Assembly: GCA_005878525.1 (NCBI GenBank)
Contig: VBMB01000135.1
Span: forward strand, 39-64,038
DNA: 64,000 nucleotides
From: Methanobacteriota archaeon
GTDB lineage: Archaea; Thermoplasmatota; Thermoplasmata; RBG-16-68-12
Direction: 5' to 3'
The notes below the pieces were generated by a model. The model was not told where the DNA came from. It searched no databases and was given only the letters and a program-made list of their open reading frames with translations. This document shows positions 3,799-60,768 of this stretch, in pieces (within the stretch, counting starts at the first letter, position 1; the number at the start of each line of letters is the position of its first letter). The position numbers and the translations under genes were made by a program.

Positions 3799-4632
3799 TT
3801 AGTTGATCTGGATGCGGTAGGTCCTTTCCGGCAAATCGTGGTGGATCGACCAAGCCTGCTCGGTTGTGAGCGACCCTCTCTCCAGCCAGGCCTTGGTCTT
3901 CTTCGGTACGGTCGCGGGTCCCAAGACGGCCCCGGGCCGGCGCGGATCGTCGATGTAATCGGTTTCCAGGAGGAATGGGGAGCCGCCTTTCAGAGCCTGC
4001 ACCACGAGCTGTTCCTTGGCCAGAATCGAAGGCACGAGTCCCGAGGTGTCCTCGCGTCGCGTGAAGGGCGTCGAATGATGCTTCACGACGTACTTGGGGT
4101 CGAGCCCCGCCCTCGCGGCCATTCTCGCGAATTCCGCGAACGTCGTCGGGGTCGGATCCTCGGTATGCAAGACGACCGCGCATTCGAGGCTCTTGGCCTG
4201 AGCCATCGCATACACGACAAGGTCGTTACAGGCCCGGATGATGTCCTCGCCGACGGGAAAGTGCGGTCTCCCGATTTCGCCGAAGGCGACGGCCCTCCCC
4301 TGGCGAATGTCGTTCGCGGCAAGGTCGATCGCATGTTTCATCGCATCCGTCGCAGATTCGTGGCCGAGCGTTTCCCGCAACTGGATGAACTCGACCGGAT
4401 ACGGACCCAGCGCGACGAACACTTGGAGGTGAGTGGCGGCCCGGACGGCGTCGGCCATGGCCAGCGTCAAGCCGTACGCCTTTTCGTAATCGGCCGCGCG
4501 GGTAATCGGCACCTCGGCGTATGGGCTGTGAGTGAGCAGGATCGCGGTGCCGCCCGACTTCTCGAATGTCTTCGCGGCCTCGACGCCTTTGAAGCTCGCA
4601 CGCAGATGGATGTGGTTGTCGAAGATGGCCAC
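3799..4632 (-). CDS. TatD-related metal-dependent hydrolase (TIM-barrel)
   Basis: N-terminal IFDNHIHL metal-binding motif; conserved His/Glu/Asp spacing consistent with the TatD/amidohydrolase superfamily. Confidence 0.6.
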   Translation of the reverse strand: MAIFDNHIHLRASFKGVEAAKTFEKSGGTAILLTHSPYAEVPITRAADYEKAYGLTLAMADAVRAATHLQVFVALGPYPVEFIQLRETLGHESATDAMKHAIDLAANDIRQGRAVAFGEIGRPHFPVGEDIIRACNDLVVYAMAQAKSLECAVVLHTEDPTPTTFAEFARMAARAGLDPKYVVKHHSTPFTRREDTSGLVPSILAKEQLVVQALKGGSPFLLETDYIDDPRRPGAVLGPATVPKKTKAWLERGSLTTEQAWSIHHDLPERTYRIQIN

Positions 4633-10685: not shown

Positions 10686-11771
10686 ATGGATCGCGTCAAG
10701 ACGGGCGTCGTAGGTCTCGACACGATGCTGACCGGCGGCCTGCTGCCTGCGCGACCGTACGTCGTCTCGGGCCCGACCGGGAGCGGCAAGACGATTCTGG
10801 CCCTCCACTTCCTCCTCGAAGGGCTCCGACAGCAGGAACCGTGTCTTCTGGTCACCCTCGATGAGCCGCCGATCGAGGTCAAGGCGAACATGGCCACGTT
10901 CGGGTGGAACCTGGACCGTCTCAAGATCCTCGATGCGACCCCGGACATCCGCGCGCACAAACGCCAGCGGTCCGTGATCGACGTCGGCACGTCCCTCGAC
11001 GTGCGGGACATGGAGGACGTCACGGAGATCCGCCAGTCCTCCCAGATCCGCGCCCTCGAGGTCACCGTGCACAGCGTACAGAAGATGATCAAACAGGAAT
11101 TCTTGCATCACCTCGAGCGGACGAAGCAGCGATACAAGCGCGTCGTCATCGATTCGATGACCGCGCTGAAGATGTTCGCGATGCAAGGCCAGGACAGCCG
11201 AATCCTGATCCAATCGTTCGTCCGGTTCCTCGCGGAACTGGAGGCGACGACCCTCATCATCTCGGAACGCCTCAACAAGAAGATCCTCGAGACGGAGTTC
11301 TTCCTCGCACGCGGCGAGGTACGGCTCCACAAGTGGATCGACGGAAGTGTGATCCGCCGCGCGATTTCGATCGACAAGTTCCGCGGTTCCTCGTTCGACG
11401 ATCGGATGCATCCAATCTCGATCGGGGACAACGGAATGGTCGTCTACCTGGACGCCCCCGCGCAGACGCGGGTGTCGAGCCCCGCTCCGAAGCCGGGTGA
11501 ATCGCTCCTCGAGACCCGGCTCATCGACGAGGTCTCGAACGTGATTGAGTCGATCATGCGTCACATCGAAGACGCCCATCGACGCCAGGTCCCGATCCGG
11601 GACATCGAGGTGTCGTTGTCTCGAGCAATGCTCGCCTTCCAACGCCGGAACTATCAGAAGGCGATGAAGCTCGCCCTCGCGTGCGACGCGGAAGTCCGAG
11701 AGCGCCTCGCGCAGGCTCCGCCTCCGCCGCCGACCTCGCAGCTGCCGCGTCCGCCCCAGGTGATCCGCTGA
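10686..11771 (+). CDS. KaiC-like RecA-superfamily ATPase (single domain with C-terminal extension)
   Basis: N-terminal IKTG..GLD..L.GG motif (VKTGVVGLDTMLTGG) and Walker A GPTGSGKT. Start set at MDRVKTG; the ATG at 10644 is an alternative. Confidence 0.85.
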   Translation: MDRVKTGVVGLDTMLTGGLLPARPYVVSGPTGSGKTILALHFLLEGLRQQEPCLLVTLDEPPIEVKANMATFGWNLDRLKILDATPDIRAHKRQRSVIDVGTSLDVRDMEDVTEIRQSSQIRALEVTVHSVQKMIKQEFLHHLERTKQRYKRVVIDSMTALKMFAMQGQDSRILIQSFVRFLAELEATTLIISERLNKKILETEFFLARGEVRLHKWIDGSVIRRAISIDKFRGSSFDDRMHPISIGDNGMVVYLDAPAQTRVSSPAPKPGESLLETRLIDEVSNVIESIMRHIEDAHRRQVPIRDIEVSLSRAMLAFQRRNYQKAMKLALACDAEVRERLAQAPPPPPTSQLPRPPQVIR

Positions 11772-12550
11772 CCGCCGCGGCCAAGATCCGGACCGGCATC
11801 CCGGGTCTCGACAAGATGCTGCACGGCGGCTACGTCCCGGGACGGCCGTACATCGTCTCGGGTCCTCCGGGCGCCGGCAAGACGATCCTCGCGATGCAGT
11901 TCCTGCGGGAGGGCCTGGAAGGCGGGGAGCGATGCCTGTTCGTGGCCCTCGAAGAGCCCCCGAACGAGCTGAAGATCAACATGCGCGGATTCCGCTGGAA
12001 CCTGGACGACCTCGACGTCCTCGACGCGAACTCCGATATCCGACGGTTCGAGCCCACGCCGATCCTCGAGATCTCCACGGAGGAAGAGCCCGCGAAGATG
12101 CGAGCGATCGGGGAGCGGATCCGGAAGACACCGGACTTCGAGAGCAAAGAAGTCACGGTCCACTCGTTGCAGCAACTGCTGAAGAACCTGTTCCTGAAGA
12201 GAAACTACGAGCGCGTCGTGATCGATTCGATGACGGCCCTCAAATATTTCTGCATGCGCGAGTTCGAGGAGACCGTCACGACGCAGTCGTTCATGCGATA
12301 CCTCGCGGAGTCGAAGGTCACTTCGCTGCTCACCCTCGAGCTCCCGGAGGAAGGCGAAGTCCCTCCGGAGGCGTTCCTGGCGCGCGGGGAGCTCCGCCTC
12401 CACAAACTCCGGGACGAGACGGGCATCAAGCGCTTCCTGTCCGTCGAGAAGTACAAAGGCTCGTCCCACGACGAGTCCGTGTATCCGTTCGAGATCACGA
12501 ACGCCGGGATCGTGATCAACATGGCCCCGATGGCCGCGACGGCCCACTGA
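11681..12550 (+). CDS. KaiC-like RecA-superfamily ATPase, tandem paralog
   Basis: IRTGIPGLDKMLHGG, Walker A GPPGAGKT, Walker B VVIDS. Only a GTG at 11681 is available upstream of the conserved N-terminal motif, which gives a 91-bp overlap with the upstream paralog; the start is uncertain. Confidence 0.8.
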   Translation: MRRGSPRAPRAGSASAADLAAAASAPGDPLTAAAKIRTGIPGLDKMLHGGYVPGRPYIVSGPPGAGKTILAMQFLREGLEGGERCLFVALEEPPNELKINMRGFRWNLDDLDVLDANSDIRRFEPTPILEISTEEEPAKMRAIGERIRKTPDFESKEVTVHSLQQLLKNLFLKRNYERVVIDSMTALKYFCMREFEETVTTQSFMRYLAESKVTSLLTLELPEEGEVPPEAFLARGELRLHKLRDETGIKRFLSVEKYKGSSHDESVYPFEITNAGIVINMAPMAATAH

Positions 12551-26191: not shown

Positions 26192-26551
26192 ATGGTCGAC
26201 ACGACCGCCCTCGAGTCCCTTCTCCACGAAGTCGAGCAGAACGAGGGTGTGCAGGAGGCGATGCTTGTTTCCCGGGCGGGAACGTATCTCGGGGGGAGCT
26301 TTCCCCGCGGCGTCCACGTGGATACCTTCGGGTCGATGTTCGCCGTCCTGGTCGGCTCCGCGATGACCATCACCGATGAAGCGAAGGATTCGCTCGAGTC
26401 CGTCGTGATCCATTCCAAGTCGAACAAGTACCTCATCGTCCACGCGGGCCGCAAGGCACTGCTCGTGATGCGCCTTCCCCCTTCCGCCGATCCACAAAAG
26501 ACGAAGACCGCGGTCGAGAAGTACATCCCGCGGATCGAGGAACATCTGTGA
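26192..26551 (+). CDS. Roadblock/LC7 (MglB-like) domain protein
   Basis: 119 aa with the typical Roadblock/LC7 secondary-structure pattern (A.LVSR.G...G). Confidence 0.7.
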   Translation: MVDTTALESLLHEVEQNEGVQEAMLVSRAGTYLGGSFPRGVHVDTFGSMFAVLVGSAMTITDEAKDSLESVVIHSKSNKYLIVHAGRKALLVMRLPPSADPQKTKTAVEKYIPRIEEHL

Positions 26552-34056: not shown

Positions 34057-34554
34057 TCAGAGGATCCGCAGGAGTTCCACCGCGACCCACTCGACGAACT
34101 CCTTGTCCGTTGGCGTGAACGCGTTCAGCTGGTCCGAGTCGATGTCGATCTCCGCGATCGCGGCGCCGTCTCGGAGGATTGGCACGACCATTTCCGCCCG
34201 TGTGTTGATGAAGCACTGGAGGTACCGCGGGTCGTCGTTCACGTCCGGCACGATGACCGTCGCCTTGTCCATCACGGCGGCCCCGCAGATGCCTTCGCCG
34301 ATCGGGATGCGCAGGTGCAGGGTCGCGCTGGGCCCGGACCAGGAGGCGAGGACCAGCTCCGATCCGTCCACGTTGTAGATTCCGACCCACGTGTAGTGCG
34401 GGATCTTCCGCAGCTCCCGGCAGACGAAGTCCGTGATCGGCTTGCGTTGGCTTCCGGAGTGGATGATCTTCTCGAGGCGAGCGGCGACCTCGTCGTAACT
34501 GACCTTGCCCTTCTCGCCGGCCATGACTTCGCCGAACTTCCCGACTCCTTTCAT
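34057..34554 (-). CDS. GAF-domain protein (free methionine-R-sulfoxide reductase-like)
   Basis: The W.GIY...L.L....G.....IP.G.GICG.A pattern resembles the fRMsr/GAF family. Start set at MKGVGKF (34554); the upstream part of the ORF is low-complexity. Confidence 0.65.
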   Translation of the reverse strand: MKGVGKFGEVMAGEKGKVSYDEVAARLEKIIHSGSQRKPITDFVCRELRKIPHYTWVGIYNVDGSELVLASWSGPSATLHLRIPIGEGICGAAVMDKATVIVPDVNDDPRYLQCFINTRAEMVVPILRDGAAIAEIDIDSDQLNAFTPTDKEFVEWVAVELLRIL

Positions 34555-34729
34555 CGTGGCGCGCCGCTCCGTCGAACGGCCGAGGTCGCCATAAGGCTTG
34601 CGGAATTTCGTGACAAGGGATTCGCGACCGGCCGTCGCTCCGTTGGAGCAACGACTCAGGACTAGGTTCCGAGCCTCGTTCGAACCGGATGATGAAATGT
34701 TCAAATATCACTGGCCTCTAGGAACGGTT

Positions 34730-34798
34730 ACAAGCATCCCTCCACAACGAGGCCGTTCCCCGGTTTTCTTGAAACGGCGAACGGCCTACCCTTTTTTT
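34730..34798 (+). ncRNA. Candidate small RNA gene A: conserved 29-nt 5' block ACAAGCAUCCCUCCACAACGAGGCCGUUC, hairpin (GGCCGUUC...GAACGGCC), U7 tract
   Basis: A TATA-like AAATATCA lies about 25 bp upstream, and a hairpin plus T-tract terminator-like end follows; a paralogous unit lies 158 bp downstream. Confidence 0.4.
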
Positions 34799-34887
34799 CT
34801 TTCGCTTGCCGGATACGTCTTTCCACGGTCCGCCGAGCGACGTCGGAAAACCGTCTTATAGCATTTGTCCATTGTCAGGTCGCTTAG

Positions 34888-34943
34888 ACAAGCATCCCTC
34901 CACAACGAGGCCGTTCAGAATTCCTGGACGGCCCTTTATTTTG
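34888..34943 (+). ncRNA. Candidate small RNA gene B, paralog of unit A (identical 29-nt 5' block, divergent hairpin, T-rich end)
   Basis: A TATA-like TCTTATAGC lies about 28 bp upstream; the identical 29-mer is followed by the GGCCGTTCAGAATTCCTGGACGGCC hairpin and CTTTATTTTG. Confidence 0.4.
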
Positions 34944-34960
34944 TGGCCCATCTCGGTGGG

Positions 34961-35602
34961 CTAGGCCATCGGCGGGATCTTGATTCCGCGGGTGTCGATC
35001 CACACGCGTCGGCCGTCCACGTTCAGGCGGCCCTCCGCGAAGAGCCGTACCGCGAGCGGCAGGAAGACATGCTCCTGCTCGAGGATGCGGGCGGCGAGGG
35101 TCTCCTCCGTGTCGTCCTCGTGGACCGGCACCGCTTTCTGCAAGATGATGGGCCCCCCGTCCACGGACGCATCGACGAAATGGATCGTGCAGCCGGAGAC
35201 CTTGACGCCGGCGGCGATCGCGTCGCGCTGCGCGCGAGCTCCGGGGAACGCCGGGAGGAGCGATGGATGGATGTTGATGATTCGGTTCGGGAACTCGCGG
35301 ATGAAAGACGCCGAGACCAGGCGCATGAAGCCGGCAAAGACGACCAGCCCGACCTCTTTTGCCCGAAGGACTTTCACGACCTCCCGTTCGAAGCCTTCGC
35401 GGTCCTTGCCGAACGGGCGGTGATCCACGACGACCGCAGGGACTTTCGCGGCTTTCGCGCGTTCGAGCACGGGCGCCCCCGGGACGTTGCAGACGAGGAC
35501 CGCGAGGTCGACGTCCAAGTCTCCGTGCTTGCGCGCGTCCACGAGGCTTTGGAAATCCGTGCCCCGCCCCGAGGCGAGTACTCCGACCTTGGTTCGGCCC
35601 AT
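34961..35602 (-). CDS. purN: Phosphoribosylglycinamide formyltransferase
   Basis: Formyltransferase motifs ([16 protein letters not shown], conserved D). Confidence 0.9.
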
Positions 35603-35611
35603 CGCGGTCCC

Positions 35612-37147
35612 TCAATGTTTGAACAACCGGATTCCCGTGAACACCATGCCGATTCCGTGCTCGTCGGCGGCTGCGATGACCTCGTCGTCGCGGATTGATC
35701 CGCCCGGCTGAGCCACCGTCGCGACGCCGCCTTTCGCGAGTTCGTCGACGCCGTCGCGGAACGGGAAGTACGCGTCGCTGACCGCGACGCTCCCGCGGGC
35801 CGCGGCTTTCGCCTTGTAGCATGCGAGCATGCACGCATCGACGCGGCTCATCTGTCCGGCGCCGACCCCGACCGTTCGCTCCCCCTTGACGAGGACGATC
35901 GAGTTCGATTTCACGTAGCGGCTCACGAGGATCCCGAACAGGATGTCGCGCATCTGGGCCGCGTTCGGCGACACTTTCGTCACGACCTTGAAGGTCTCGG
36001 GACGCGGGGTTGGAAAGTCCGTCGTCTGGAGCAGGACCCCGCCCAGGACGCGGACCATGTCGATCCCGTGGTCTTTCCGGAACGGTCCGCGAGTCCGCAG
36101 GATCAGGAAGGTCCCCTTCTTCTTTGATTTCAGGAGGTCGAGGGCTTGCGGCTCGTACTCCGGCGCGATGACGGCATCGAGGACGTCCTTCCTCATCGCC
36201 TTCGCGGTGGCGAGATCGACGGGACGATTCAATCCGACCACGCCGCCATAGGCGGAGACCGGGTCCGCGGCATGCGCGAGTGGATAGGCTTCGGCGAGTG
36301 TCGACGCCAGGGCCACCCCAGACGGATTCGTGTGTTTGATCACGACGGCCGCCGGTCGATCAAATTCCGTCGCGAGGCGCAACGCCGCATCGAGGTCGAT
36401 CAGGTTGTTGTACGACAGCTCCTTCCCCTGCAACTTCTCCGCGGTCGCCGTCGCGGCGAACGGGAAGGGCTCATGGTACAGAGCCGCCTTCTGATACGGG
36501 TTCTCCCCATAGCGGAGGTCACCGACTTTGTCGTACGCCAGGCGCAGCGCAGGCGGGAGCGCGGTCCCTTGTCGCTTCGCGAGGTAATTGAAAATCGCGG
36601 CGTCGTAGCGGGACGTGTACTCGAACGCCTCTATGGCGAGTTCGTTTCGGAGCTTCTCCGGGATTGATCGGTGTTCCCGGAGCGCGTGGAGGACGTCCGA
36701 GTACCGCTCGGGCCGGACGATGACAGTGACCCGCGCGGCGTTTTTCGCGGCGGCCCGGATCAGCGACACGCCGCCGATGTCGATGTTCTCGACGGCCTCC
36801 TCAAACCCGACGTCCGGCTTCGCCACCGTGGCTTCGAACGGATACAGGTTCACGACGACCATGTCGATCGGGACGGCACCCAGGTCCGCGAGGTCCTTCT
36901 CATCGCCGCGGGGAGCGAGGATGCCGGCGAAGATTTTTGGGTGGAGCGTCTTCACGCGGCCACCCAAGCCCTCGTGGAGCCCGGTGTAGTCCGCGACGGT
37001 CATCACCGGGAGACCCGCATCCTTCAGGGTCTTCGCCGTCCCTTCCGTGCCAATCAATTCGAAACCGATCCCGCGCAAGTCCCGAGCGAACTCGACGAGG
37101 CCCTCCTTGTCCGACACGCTGAAGAGAGCCCGGCGGGGGGAAACCAT
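35612..37147 (-). CDS. purH: Bifunctional AICAR transformylase / IMP cyclohydrolase
   Basis: MGS-like N-terminal domain ([15 protein letters not shown]) and the AICARFT domain. Start at MVSPRRA. Confidence 0.9.
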
Positions 37148-37224
37148 CCCTATTACCGGGTGGCAATGGGGAGAATGCAATTAAGTCTTCGGTGAGTCCA
37201 GATGACCGCGCGCGGGAAATGCCC

Positions 37225-44711: not shown

Positions 44712-44756
44712 ACAAGTACCATCCACAACCGGTTGCAGAAAACGAGGCGTTCCCCG
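44712..44756 (+). repeat. Diverged third copy of the 29-nt block found in the 34730 and 34888 units
   Basis: ACAAGTACCATCCACAAC then a 12-nt insertion then ACGAGGCGTTCCCCGG, compared with ACAAGCATCCCTCCACAACGAGGCCGTTCCCCGG. Confidence 0.35.
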
Positions 44757-44823
44757 GAGACGGGAAGCAAGGCATCGTGTGCGGGCGTCGCTAAATGCGC
44801 GTCTCGCGGGCTGCAAAAAGGGT

Positions 44824-45708
44824 ATGGTTCTGATCGTGATTACGTCGAACGTGGTATCATCCGTCTTCGCCAGCCGGGAGTGCGGGCTTTTGCTTGGAGA
44901 CGCCCGAGAAGTGCTCCGAACCCTGGCTGATGATTCCGTGGACTGCACCGTCACGAGCCCGCCGTACTACAGCGGACGTCGGCACGTCGGCGACACTGTC
45001 CTCGAAATCGGAAGCGAAAAGACCGTGGAGGAATACGTTGAAGCCCTCGCGTCCGTCGGGAAAGAGTTGTACCGTGTTACAAGGCCCACGGGAAGTTACT
45101 GGCTCAATCTCGACGACAAGTGCGAACGGAAGGAATGGCTGGGAATCCCATGGCGCGTCGCATTCGCGATGCGAGAAATTGGATGGAAAATCAGAAGCGA
45201 GGTGATCTGGCACAAGCCAACGCATGTCCGTAACGCGGCCAAGGACCGACTGACTCCTGCCCACGAGCTGCTCTTCTACTTTGTGAAAAGCAAAGACGCG
45301 TACTACGACATGGATGCGATCAGAAGACCCTCATCGCCACCGATTTGGGGGAAGAATGGTGTCGTGAAAACTCGGAGGGGCAGCGTGCCGACGGATGTCT
45401 GGACCCTTCAAATCGAGGACTCCACTTCTCCTGAGAATCCCTATGCGGCGTTTCCTGAAGCATTGGTTGAACTTCCAATCCGAGCCACATGCCCCCGAGG
45501 CGGAACCGTGCTCGATCCTTTTGTCGGGAGCGGCACGACGGCAGTGGTCGCACTGAGACTCGGGAGGAAGGCCATCGGGATCGACGCCTCAGCCGATTGC
45601 CTCGAGTTCACCAAGAAACGAATCCTGGAGGTCAGGGGACAGCCCGCAACTCCTCGACAAACCCCGTTCAATCACGCCGTGAAGGTGAGCCATGGGTGCA
45701 TGCGCTGA
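44824..45708 (+). CDS. Beta-class N4-cytosine or N6-adenine DNA methyltransferase; no cognate restriction enzyme is recognisable
   Basis: Motif IV SPPY precedes motif I DPFVGSGTT. Start at MVLIVITSN. GC content and third-position usage are clearly lower than in surrounding genes. Confidence 0.8.
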   Translation: MVLIVITSNVVSSVFASRECGLLLGDAREVLRTLADDSVDCTVTSPPYYSGRRHVGDTVLEIGSEKTVEEYVEALASVGKELYRVTRPTGSYWLNLDDKCERKEWLGIPWRVAFAMREIGWKIRSEVIWHKPTHVRNAAKDRLTPAHELLFYFVKSKDAYYDMDAIRRPSSPPIWGKNGVVKTRRGSVPTDVWTLQIEDSTSPENPYAAFPEALVELPIRATCPRGGTVLDPFVGSGTTAVVALRLGRKAIGIDASADCLEFTKKRILEVRGQPATPRQTPFNHAVKVSHGCMR

Positions 45709-45832
45709 GTGCGGAGCGGAAACACGGTTCGAATGGGTCCGGCCGGATGTTTGGAAGCAGAAGATCGAACAGGTCGGACTCGAGGACATCCTCTGCTTGC
45801 GCTGTTACACCCGCCTCCATTGGTCGTAGGGC
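45692..45832 (+). CDS. Small zinc-ribbon protein (46 aa, CAECG...CLRC)
   Basis: Overlaps the methyltransferase 3' end by 17 nt. Below the ORF-track size cut-off; same low-GC islet. Confidence 0.35.
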
Positions 45833-59330: not shown

Positions 59331-59580
59331 CCGCGTCCCGGGGCCGGGGATCACCTCGGGTGAGCAAACAGGAAAAGCGCTAGTGTCGCCTTGGAGGGAG
59401 AGGGTTGACGACACCAGCGCAACATCGTAACCGGCGAAATGCCGGGTCCGACGTCCCTTCCAAGGGGCGGGCATATTAACGGGTTATTGTACGCTGGTGA
59501 AAGGAGAGCGGGCCACGAGCCCGCAAGCTCGAGAAGAAAGAAAAGAGAAAGGGGAAGAGGGTTGGGGGTTTGTCGGCCGC

Positions 59581-60045
59581 CTACGTCAGGGCGTGTGCGT
59601 ACAGGATTCCCTGGGAGTCGGCAATCTGCACCGCGTACCCGCTCGGGTACGTGGTCGTGCTGATCAAGACCCGGTCTCCGACGACGATGGTCGTGCCTCC
59701 GGTCCCGACGAACTGGGCCCTGTTGGTGTTCCACGAGGCCGACGTCAGGGATGCGAAGGCGGTGGGGCTGAGCGACGTCAAACCTCCCGAGGTGGTGATC
59801 GTCAGCTTAACGGCCGACGTCGTCAGGCCACTCGGTGTCGTCGTGATCAACAGCGTCCAGTTCGTTCCATCGCCGGATCTCCCGATATTGACACCCATCA
59901 CACGAGGTCCTTGACCCGTGGGCGTCAGCAGGCCGGATACCATCACGTACAGCACCGCGGCCAGCACGACCGTAATCGCGACCATCAGGATGGTCGCAAT
60001 CACGGGCGACACGGCTGCCTCATCCTTTCGGATGATGCTCTTCAT
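59581..60045 (-). CDS. Archaeal type IV pilin-like protein with class III (prepilin) signal peptide, copy A
   Basis: MKSIIRKDEAAVSPVIATILMVAITVVLAAVLYV is a class III signal with a FlaK/PibD-type cleavage context; Thr/Ser/Gly-rich mature part. The listed ORF 59581..60363 has a spurious 5' extension. Confidence 0.7.
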   Translation of the reverse strand: MKSIIRKDEAAVSPVIATILMVAITVVLAAVLYVMVSGLLTPTGQGPRVMGVNIGRSGDGTNWTLLITTTPSGLTTSAVKLTITTSGGLTSLSPTAFASLTSASWNTNRAQFVGTGGTTIVVGDRVLISTTTYPSGYAVQIADSQGILYAHALT

Positions 60046-60768
60046 GGTTCTGTCCTCCTGCGGCTTGCGCCGCCATCTCGGCACGGGGGAACCGACGCTC
60101 TTAAACGTGTCGTGGTTAATATTCGAAGTTGAGAACGAACGGATCGGGTACGCGCGGGAAATGGAAAGGAAAGAGAAAAGGGAAGAAGGTTGGGGGCTGG
60201 ATGCTGAGCCTAGCCCAGGGCGTGTGCGTACAGGATTCCCTGGGAGTCGGCGATCTGCACGCCGTACCCGCTCGGGTACGTGGTCGTGCTGATCAGGAGC
60301 CGGTCTCCGACGACGACGGTCGTGCCTCCGGTCCCGACGAACTGGGCCCTGTTGGCGTTCCACGAGGCCGACGTCAAAGACGAGAGGGCGATCGGGTTGA
60401 GCGCCGTCAGGCCGCCGGTTGTCGTGATCGTCAGCTTAACGGCCGACGTCGTCAGGCCACTCGGTGTCGTCGTGATCAACAGCGTCCAGTTCGTTCCGTC
60501 TCCAGACGTGCCGATATTGACACCCATCACACGAGGTCCTTGACCCGTGGGCGTCAGCAGGCCGGATACCATCACGTACAGCACCGCGGCCAGCACGACC
60601 GTAATCGCGACCATCAGGATGGTCGCAATCACAGGCGACACGGCTGCCTCATCCTTTCGGATGATGCTCTTCATGGTTCTGTCCTCCTGCGGCTTGCGCC
60701 GCCATCTCGGCACGGGGGAACCGACGCTCTTAAACGTGTCGTGGTTAATATTCGAAGTTGAGAACGAG
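59587..60768. repeat. Tandem direct duplication (2 x about 552 bp, 78-bp spacer) covering the pilin gene plus about 95 bp of its upstream region
   Basis: 59587..60138 versus 60216..60768 are about 95% identical, including the non-coding upstream segment. Confidence 0.7.
60210..60674 (-). CDS. Archaeal type IV pilin-like protein, copy B (about 93% identical to copy A)
   Basis: Same class III signal peptide; about 10 substitutions in the mature part. Confidence 0.7.
   Translation of the reverse strand: MKSIIRKDEAAVSPVIATILMVAITVVLAAVLYVMVSGLLTPTGQGPRVMGVNIGTSGDGTNWTLLITTTPSGLTTSAVKLTITTTGGLTALNPIALSSLTSASWNANRAQFVGTGGTTVVVGDRLLISTTTYPSGYGVQIADSQGILYAHALG

Follow-up and report, generated by a model that had tools for sequence, protein, structure and literature searches.

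Two predicted tandem small-RNA genes represent a conserved, apparently undescribed RNA family of Thermoplasmata

LhrC1-5 of Listeria monocytogenes are near-identical sibling small RNAs (sRNAs), with some encoded in tandem in one intergenic region, and each is equipped with its own promoter and terminator. The LhrC RNAs are controlled by LisRK and contain three UCCC motifs that are partly located in loops, and their CU-rich unpaired motifs pair with purine-rich ribosome-binding regions. RsaE/RoxS of the Firmicutes and the csRNAs of Streptococcus are short, broadly conserved RNAs in which C-rich or anti-Shine-Dalgarno/anti-AUG unpaired motifs are followed by a terminator hairpin, and some of them are multi-copy siblings; RsaE regulates central and one-carbon metabolism. 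The bacterial Hfq-dependent siblings Qrr1-5, OmrA/B and PrrF1/2 share an identical seed and differ in the promoter or the 3' part, with PrrF1/2 and OmrA/B arranged in tandem. In archaea, sRNA162, sRNA154 and sRNA41 of Methanosarcina mazei and the Haloferax sRNAs use a TATA promoter and oligo-U termination, and among them are RNAs that mask ribosome-binding sites or target 3' UTRs. To our knowledge, few archaeal regulatory RNAs are conserved beyond the genus, and RNA regulation in uncultured soil and sediment Thermoplasmata is almost uncharted.

The locus described here belongs to a 64,000-nt stretch of DNA (the window) from a soil Thermoplasmata archaeon with a GC content of ~64%, and near-identical strain contigs of the window are contained in several soil metagenomes. 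Two units, A and B, are both located within the 406-bp gap between a GAF-domain gene and purN (Table 1). Judged by comparative sequence evidence, units A and B are real, conserved small-RNA genes, and by analogy they resemble sibling regulatory sRNAs, notable for the breadth and the degree of their conservation. They are similar to LhrC1-5 in being multi-copy siblings with their own promoters and terminators and a CU-rich unpaired motif, pairing being a feature of LhrC. LhrC1-5 differ in being bacterial and unrelated in sequence, whereas archaeal BRE/TATA promoters and only one 5' motif characterize the Thermoplasmata family. The one-carbon regulation by RsaE loosely recalls the purine/folate gene neighbourhood of units A and B, but RsaE/RoxS and the csRNAs belong to another domain of life and display no homology to the units (no Rfam match in the window or in 10 loci). 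Qrr1-5, OmrA/B and PrrF1/2 are likewise paralogues that share a seed and are in part adjacent, although their sequences are unrelated and their regulons are established. An independent TATA promoter and oligo-U termination are common to the archaeal trans-acting sRNAs and the units. Those sRNAs, however, are restricted to a species or genus, usually single-copy and longer, whereas the Thermoplasmata family spans at least 57 species, keeps its core invariant and attains up to 8 copies per genome.

Units A and B share the 29-nt block ACAAGCATCCCTCCACAACGAGGCCGTTC, which occurs exactly twice in the window, at 34730-34758 and 34888-34916 of the plus strand, with a spacing of 158 nt. No further match with up to three mismatches was found in the window, and 100 shuffles gave 0 matches (chance expectation, 0). 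In both units, ~20 unpaired nucleotides are followed by a GC-rich hairpin, with folding energies of -22.4 kcal/mol for unit A (z = -3.5) and -18.4 kcal/mol for unit B (z = -3.9), the latter calculated on 34888-34944, i.e. without the GCUUAG extension. A terminator scan of the window picks up unit B. A covariance model of the family, run with filters off, matches exactly two members in the window, at 34724-34797 (unit A, 77.8 bits) and 34882-34944 (unit B, 67.4 bits). An initial reading of the DNA (hereafter, the sequence-only reading) had proposed two tandem units that share the 29-nt block, each preceded by a TATA-like element and ended by a GC hairpin plus a T-tract, with the flanking genes on the other strand; all of these elements were recovered. 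A bacterial sigma-70 scan, which is irrelevant to archaeal promoters, reported no plus-strand promoter. Unit B is convergent with purN, and the end of its T-tract is 18 nt from the purN stop codon. Upstream of purN are purH and an MTHFR-like gene. Homologues of the GAF protein are named L-methionine-(R)-S-oxide reductase in some sources.

Table 1. Coordinates of the two units, their flanking genes and a rejected copy in the window
Feature	Position	Strand	Description
GAF/fRMsr-like gene	34057-34554	minus	165-aa GAF-domain protein
Unit A predicted promoter	34693-34709	plus	purine-rich BRE-like stretch, then TATA-like box TTCAAATATC (34700-34709)
Unit A unpaired 5' region	34730-34749	plus	ACAAGCAUCCCUCCACAACG; unpaired in MFE and centroid folds
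Unit A hairpin	34750-34787	plus	GC clamp GGCCGUUC/GAACGGCC, interrupted upper stem, U-rich loop
Unit A oligo-T termination signal	34792-34802	plus	TTTTTTTCTTT; includes TTTTTTT at 34792-34798
Unit B predicted promoter	34846-34862	plus	BRE-like GGAAAACC, then TATA-like box CTTATAGC (34855-34862)
Unit B 5' region	34882-34908	plus	GCUUAGACAAGCAUCCCUCCACAACGA; unpaired in fold of 34888-34944
Unit B hairpin	34909-34933	plus	10 pairs including one U-G; loop AAUUC
Unit B oligo-T termination signal	34936-34943	plus	TTTATTTT; from sequence and terminator scan
purN	34961-35602	minus	
Proposed third copy	44712-44757	plus	rejected as family member

A diverged third copy had also been proposed at 44712, and this assignment did not hold. 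The stretch is the best local alignment to unit A in the window outside the units (gapped score, 32.5), and 1 of 40 random Markov-1 sequences scored as high. The covariance model, with filters off and at E<=10, gave no match there. The TATA box, the terminator hairpin and the T-tract are all absent from the stretch, and its fold is no better than those of shuffled sequences (z = +0.5). The stretch at 44712 was thus rejected as a family member on account of the covariance model, the promoter and terminator, and the fold; it is a chance similarity or at best a decayed relic, and no functional member. Decayed family copies exist elsewhere, for example in the locus L034, so that 44712 may be a relic.

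The conservation of the units was analysed in loci of relatives that were fetched through the neighbouring GAF or purN protein (75-90% identity for GAF), the RNA sequence playing no part in the sampling. In the relatives fetched through the GAF protein, unit A is present in all eight and unit B in seven, unit B having been lost in L017. The units of the relatives lie on the strand opposite purN and the GAF gene, as in the window. The sequence AGCATCCCTCCA is invariant in 15/15 units of the protein-anchored loci; these 15 units constitute the unbiased set for invariance, because the set derived from pattern searches is partly invariant by construction. Alignment of the whole spacer reveals conservation in five islands only, which are the GAF promoter (CCATAAGG on the plus strand), the unit A TATA region, the unit A body, the unit B BRE/TATA region (CGAAAAGCGTTTTATAG) and the unit B body. 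The rest of the spacer varies freely, including the stretches between the TATA box and the RNA start. This pattern corresponds to the footprint of two transcription units under selection. Moreover, the unit B hairpin shows compensatory variants in the relatives, such as CAGCACCCCUG and CCGGCUCAUCCGG.

The promoter elements are retained across the family. In the syntenic loci, the unit A box is represented by the equivalent TTGATATAC/TTGAAATAC, whose position is kept while the flanks vary, and the unit B box of the relatives (CGAAAAGCGTTTTATAG) is found at the equivalent position. A TATA-like 8-mer, with at least 6 of 8 positions matching, is present in 111/129 upstream regions. Relative to the A of AGCAUCC, the TATA centres form a sharp peak, at -29.5 nt in type-A-like units and at -32.5 to -35.5 nt in type-B-like units. 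The spacing from the TATA box to the start in archaea is usually ~26 nt, which places the predicted start of type A at ACA|AGC and that of type B at the G of the conserved GCUUAGACA extension. Type B units also keep GCTTAGACA immediately 5' of AGCATCC. For the window, transcription starts are predicted from the TATA spacing at ~34730 for unit A and at ~34882-34886 for unit B, and RNA polymerase that initiates at these positions would halt in the T-tracts. Essentially every family member has a T-tract 3' of its hairpin. Inspection of the alignment of units by eye revealed neither a conserved start codon nor a conserved reading frame. The comparative evidence strongly supports each unit as a small-RNA gene with its own BRE/TATA promoter and oligo-T terminator, in agreement with the independent transcription of small RNAs that the sequence-only reading had put forward.

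The family extends well beyond the soil relatives. A scan for the pattern AGCATCCCTCCACAAC-N1-4-GCCGT over one genome per GTDB species yielded at least 95 stretches with at least 118 units in at least 57 species-representative assemblies. All of these stretches come from MAGs labelled Thermoplasmata, Methanomassiliicoccales, Methanobacteriota or Euryarchaeota, with a locus GC content of 49-70% and 1-8 units per assembly; loci in other genomes contain one or two units each. A metagenome scan added at least 120 further stretches with at least 174 units, on contigs whose names are typical of soil and sediment samples. The covariance model finds ~125 strong members in the loci, with scores of 45-77 bits. 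Two 16-mer matches in viral contigs (20 and 17.6 bits), which lack the hairpin, were dismissed as chance. An assignment to a known family, which had been raised as a check, was not obtained: Rfam 15 gave 0 matches at gathering score in the whole window and 0 in 10 family-bearing loci from other clades, and a permissive scan of 34500-35000 returned noise only (best 13.7 bits, against gathering scores of 50-72). The core sequence, searched in literature full text in both orientations, retrieved unrelated primers only, and a keyword search of the literature gave nothing relevant to the family. This RNA family of Thermoplasmata is apparently uncatalogued and undescribed.

The secondary structure was evaluated on a family alignment of 106 distinct units, from which the covariance model was built. 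In this alignment, AGCAUCCCUCCA is invariant and is usually followed by CAAC. The stem base GGCCGU/ACGGCC never varies in its lower six pairs, and the upper stem and loop are variable in both sequence and length. In the 13-pair helix, 84.4% of the cells are paired, compared with 24-50% in slid registers. Changes on both sides of a pair amount to 110 cells vs 60 +/- 7 in shuffles, none of 500 shuffles being as high, and are located at four upper-stem positions and at the outermost and innermost pairs. The numbers of sequences changed on both sides are 12 for 37:66, 20 for 39:64, 39 for 40:63 and 33 for 41:62. The covariation score is 0.201 vs 0.115 in shuffles (0/500 as high). RNAalifold with default settings returned no structure for the 106-row alignment, which is attributable to a few mis-registered rows, since the stem was recovered with RIBOSUM scoring (-25.2 kcal/mol) and also in a 17-row subset (-9.2 kcal/mol) that consists of the two window units and 15 units from the protein-anchored loci. 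A small 5' hairpin in type B (GCUU/AAGC) was rejected; the AGUUAUCUAAGC and UCGAUUCUAAGC variants, judged by eye, do not preserve the pairing. G-U cells outnumber A-C cells (80 vs 41), and this excess, together with the T-tracts and TATA boxes, indicates that the plus strand is transcribed.

The same data bear on the view that the elements are not RNA genes, being instead a DNA repeat (MITE- or REP-like, transcription-factor sites or an insulator), terminators of the neighbouring genes or a degenerate CRISPR array. Up to 8 copies occur in some genomes, and in one MAG five copies lie inside a ~0.3-0.4 kb repeat with a small GIY-YIG-like ORF, as expected of a repeat. However, a TATA box at fixed distance and a T-tract on one strand accompany every copy, and compensatory stem changes and a G-U excess on the plus strand are observed. 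The units show no terminal inverted repeats, and the similarity between copies mostly stops at the unit start and the terminator: in two 8-copy genomes, the alignment of most copy pairs is confined to the ~70 nt between the predicted start and the terminator. Longer flanks are shared by a subset of copies through recent duplication, including the five copies inside the ~0.3-0.4 kb repeat. A genome-wide MITE-like repeat, the outcome named by the sequence-only reading as opposing its proposal, is matched by the multiple copies in some genomes but not by the promoter and terminator retained at each copy. Intrinsic terminators of the GAF gene and purN were rejected as well; both genes are encoded on the minus strand, and the hairpins read on that strand are followed by UCGUUGUGG rather than by a T-tract. 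As anticipated by that reading, a CRISPR array is contradicted by the one or two adjacent copies, each with its own TATA box and T-tract, by the unequal spacing and by 3' halves that are not repeat-like. Taken together, the view that the elements are not RNA genes is very improbable.

Several known RNA classes were also considered. ARAGORN finds no tRNA or tmRNA gene in the window, and UGAUGA, expected of a C/D-box sRNA, is absent from both units. A tRNA 3'-half or split-tRNA was rejected because the T-loop consensus is unmet and ARAGORN finds nothing. A riboswitch or attenuator was rejected on positional grounds; unit A precedes the unit B promoter, unit B is convergent with purN, and the contexts of the other copies vary.

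The genomic contexts of the units address a possible local role in cis, in which convergent transcription or an antisense duplex with the purN 3' UTR would control the purine and one-carbon genes of the purH-purN operon. Besides the short distance between unit B and the purN stop codon, the first minus-strand T-run 3' of purN is located past unit B, so that a purN 3' UTR would span the complement of the whole of unit B. The gene order purN / B / A / GAF is kept in the soil clade, and other copies are found upstream of purD and ~1.4 kb from purLQ. The gap between purN and unit B, however, is far from constant, measuring 18 nt in the window but ~130-140 nt in L007 and L009; in L012, a HAD hydrolase gene is inserted between them. 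Many copies reside in unrelated contexts, including positions after TRAM-domain, surface-protein or deaminase genes, and several lower-GC MAGs display an M29 peptidase / TRAM / sRNA arrangement. A position near carB occurs as well. In the soil clade, too, TRAM and pur genes are found within a few kb, and the association with pur genes may thus reflect inherited gene order rather than independent functional evidence. A cis role also leaves the invariant 5' sequence of the dispersed copies unexplained. A local effect on purHN is possible for unit B, but we consider control of the purine genes in cis to be improbable as the main role.

Pairing in trans was explored through searches for targets of the conserved 5' sequence. 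In a duplex scan of the seed against the window, the best site reached -25.0 kcal/mol, and shuffled seeds reached -29 kcal/mol. The most appealing site, at 26242 (GGAGGCGATGCTTGT), is located inside a Roadblock/LC7-type ORF and was discarded. The name of this ORF was read from its sequence and from a Robl_LC7 gene at the equivalent place in relatives. Across the start regions of ~30 syntenic gene families in nine loci, no strong site recurred consistently; the highest ranks went to TRAM and purH (means of ~-15 kcal/mol), which show no conservation of the complementary bases. Complementary k-mers are not enriched in 0.9-1.6 Mb of related DNA, coding coincidences aside. Such a coincidence is GGAGGGATG, with 47 occurrences vs ~15 expected, which was rejected as a sign of targets in that it reflects the NIHPS codons of purN on the opposite strand and a codon run in the GxGxxG region of a geranylgeranyl-reductase-like gene. 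The purN of the window reads CATCCATCG and does not keep GGAGGGATG.

The translation signals of the neighbourhood were inspected alongside these searches. Many nearby first genes have a TATA-like box only ~27-40 nt 5' of the start codon, and internal cistrons nearby carry weak GAGG/GGTG motifs only. Many of the nearby first cistrons thus appear leaderless or short-leadered, which would leave limited scope for the classical Shine-Dalgarno-masking model. Pairing of CCCUCC with GGAGG-type ribosome-binding sites is plausible and constitutes a candidate mechanism.

The main rival to pairing with mRNA is that the small RNAs bind a protein or the ribosome, with AGCAUCCCUCCA and the GGCCGU/ACGGCC stem base as the recognition site. 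The RNA might then be a subunit of an RNP, associate with the ribosome or serve as a decoy for a factor that binds C-rich or anti-Shine-Dalgarno sequences. Sequence invariance extends over both the single-stranded core and the lower stem, where structure alone permits change, and a partner of this kind accounts for the invariance about equally well. The mRNA target searches gave no site above background, and the several copies with consensus-like BRE/TATA boxes suggest an abundant RNA. In addition, the core AUCCCUCCA resembles the presumed 3' end of 16S rRNA (AUCACCUCCU). On the other hand, no partner protein gene is consistently adjacent to the copies, whose neighbourhoods differ, and a free 5' region combined with a terminator hairpin is the design of a classical base-pairing sRNA. 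When the 16S, 23S and 5S rRNAs of E. coli were taken to represent the universal core, complementarity to them did not exceed that of shuffled seeds, a result that opposes a ribosomal partner and says nothing on protein binding; no rRNA genes were present in the archaeal loci examined. We regard a protein or ribosome partner as possible, with a distinctly lower probability than pairing in trans.

A bolder variant assigns the family a lineage-wide role as an abundant master RNA. Here, the AUCCCUCCA core would mimic the anti-Shine-Dalgarno end of 16S rRNA and compete globally for GGAGG-type sites or for 16S 3'-end factors, and its dose would be determined by how many copies a genome carries (1-8 genes, with different promoters). 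This is a speculative and rather unlikely reading.

The reading that we modestly favour is that units A (~70 nt) and B (~60 nt) are two paralogous sRNA genes of a conserved Thermoplasmata family that would act in trans. A trans-acting sibling design is suggested by the free invariant 5' region, the terminator hairpin with its U-tail, and the paralogues with differing promoters. In this mechanism, the hairpin and U-tail would shield the 3' terminus, and an Sm-like protein may be bound by them. The unpaired, CU-rich 5' segment would most likely pair in trans with purine-rich GGAGGGAUGC-type sites on several mRNAs, and this pairing would alter the translation or stability of the mRNAs. The shared seed and different promoters of the siblings, which number up to 8 per genome elsewhere, would allow dosage or differential control. 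Most base-pairing seeds would need less than 12-16 invariant nt in genomes that range from 49 to 70% GC, and this degree of conservation is compatible with a protein or ribosome partner as well.

An invariant core of 12-16 nt in at least 57 species, with clear promoters and terminators, makes the family an unusually clean candidate riboregulator or RNP component. Its covariance model is ready for use in annotation, its defined sequence can be sought in metatranscriptomes, and the family could mark how promoters and terminators are built in these archaea. Should ribosome-binding sites or ribosome biogenesis factors be what the core acts on, the family would bear on the control of translation in archaea whose mRNAs are mostly leaderless. 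If the core is indeed an anti-Shine-Dalgarno mimic, the family would represent a layer of translation control that is undescribed in archaea.

The only conserved island in the spacer around the paired sRNA genes, apart from those of units A and B, is a TATA-like box on the GAF side (CCTTATGG on the minus strand), which precedes the start codon of the GAF gene by ~40 nt. This gene thus has a promoter of its own and is transcribed divergently from unit A, ~105 nt apart. In one relative (L017), unit A is present and unit B is wholly lost next to a GAF protein with 75% identity; the A/B pair is therefore not obligatory.

In the sRNA target search, the k-mer count was raised by the purN codons of the catalytic NIHPS(L)LP motif, which read CAUCCCUCC in many relatives. 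The purN sequence and the sRNA core have the same sense, and GGAGGGATG therefore lies on the sRNA strand, ~371 nt downstream of unit B. Since the window's own purN reads CATCCATCG at this motif, the match looks like a coding coincidence.

The region upstream of purH is unusually well conserved (window, L007, L009 and L011-L017), with TTTAAT at ~-40 followed by CCCCATTG and then GGTAATAGGGATGG. This arrangement suggests a very short purH leader, and a regulator site is possible between the TATA box and the start. In L001, L007 and L009, a near-consensus promoter (TATATCATTATATACC) precedes the gene for the TRAM-domain protein, whose leader is ~40 nt long and contains a conserved GGCGGCAG-GGGCCGCC hairpin. 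Relatives of lower GC carry a member of the sRNA family ~190 nt beyond this gene, on its downstream side.

The ORF that follows the rejected third copy of the family contains an SPPY-type DNA methyltransferase motif (VTSPPYYSGR). Within the window, GC content is lowest in the kilobase that holds this ORF (0.568 versus ~0.64), which suggests a restriction-modification gene gained horizontally. In relatives, the translin gene is followed by a KaiC-like ATPase gene, not by the methyltransferase ORF. The window also contains a 300-nt direct repeat (90% identity, 629 nt apart) and a two-block repeat (~70% identity, 1091 nt apart). Judging by the GxxGxGKT-type repeat D9, the latter probably stems from duplication within a gene for a KaiC/RecA-like ATPase.

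Coordinates of the features in the window and in related loci
Feature	Sequence	Position	Strand
GAF TATA-like box	window	34590-34599	minus
purN motif equivalent	window	35255-35275	minus
purH upstream region	window	37147-37190	minus
Methyltransferase ORF	window	44800-45710	
Two-block repeat	window	10700-10951 / 11791-12042	
Direct repeat	window	59579-59878 / 60208-60507	
Upstream of TRAM gene	L007	12795-12860	
Upstream of TRAM gene	L009	12808-12870	
Upstream of TRAM gene	L001	13352-13420	
Unit A without unit B	L017	9707-10000	
Decayed or diverged copy	L034	~4100-4170	
Decayed or diverged copy (second unit)	L018	4222-4286	
Decayed or diverged copy (type A)	L086	3175-3248	
E29_bin30 sRNA repeat region	L052	6641-7421	
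E29_bin30 sRNA copy	L059		
E29_bin30 sRNA copy	L074		
E29_bin30 sRNA copy	L090		
E29_bin30 sRNA copy	L104		

Decayed or diverged family copies occur in L034, L018 and L086. The L034 copy retains CCACAACGAGG but nothing else of the core, the second unit of L018 carries AAGCAUCCCGCUG, and the type-A unit of L086 keeps only CCCUCCA, along with the TATA box and hairpin. In the MAG E29_bin30, each of five sRNA copies resides within a repeat of ~0.3-0.4 kb (92-97% identity). In this repeat there is also a small ORF, which has a GIY-YIG-like motif; the repeat may therefore be a mobile cassette that carries the sRNA.
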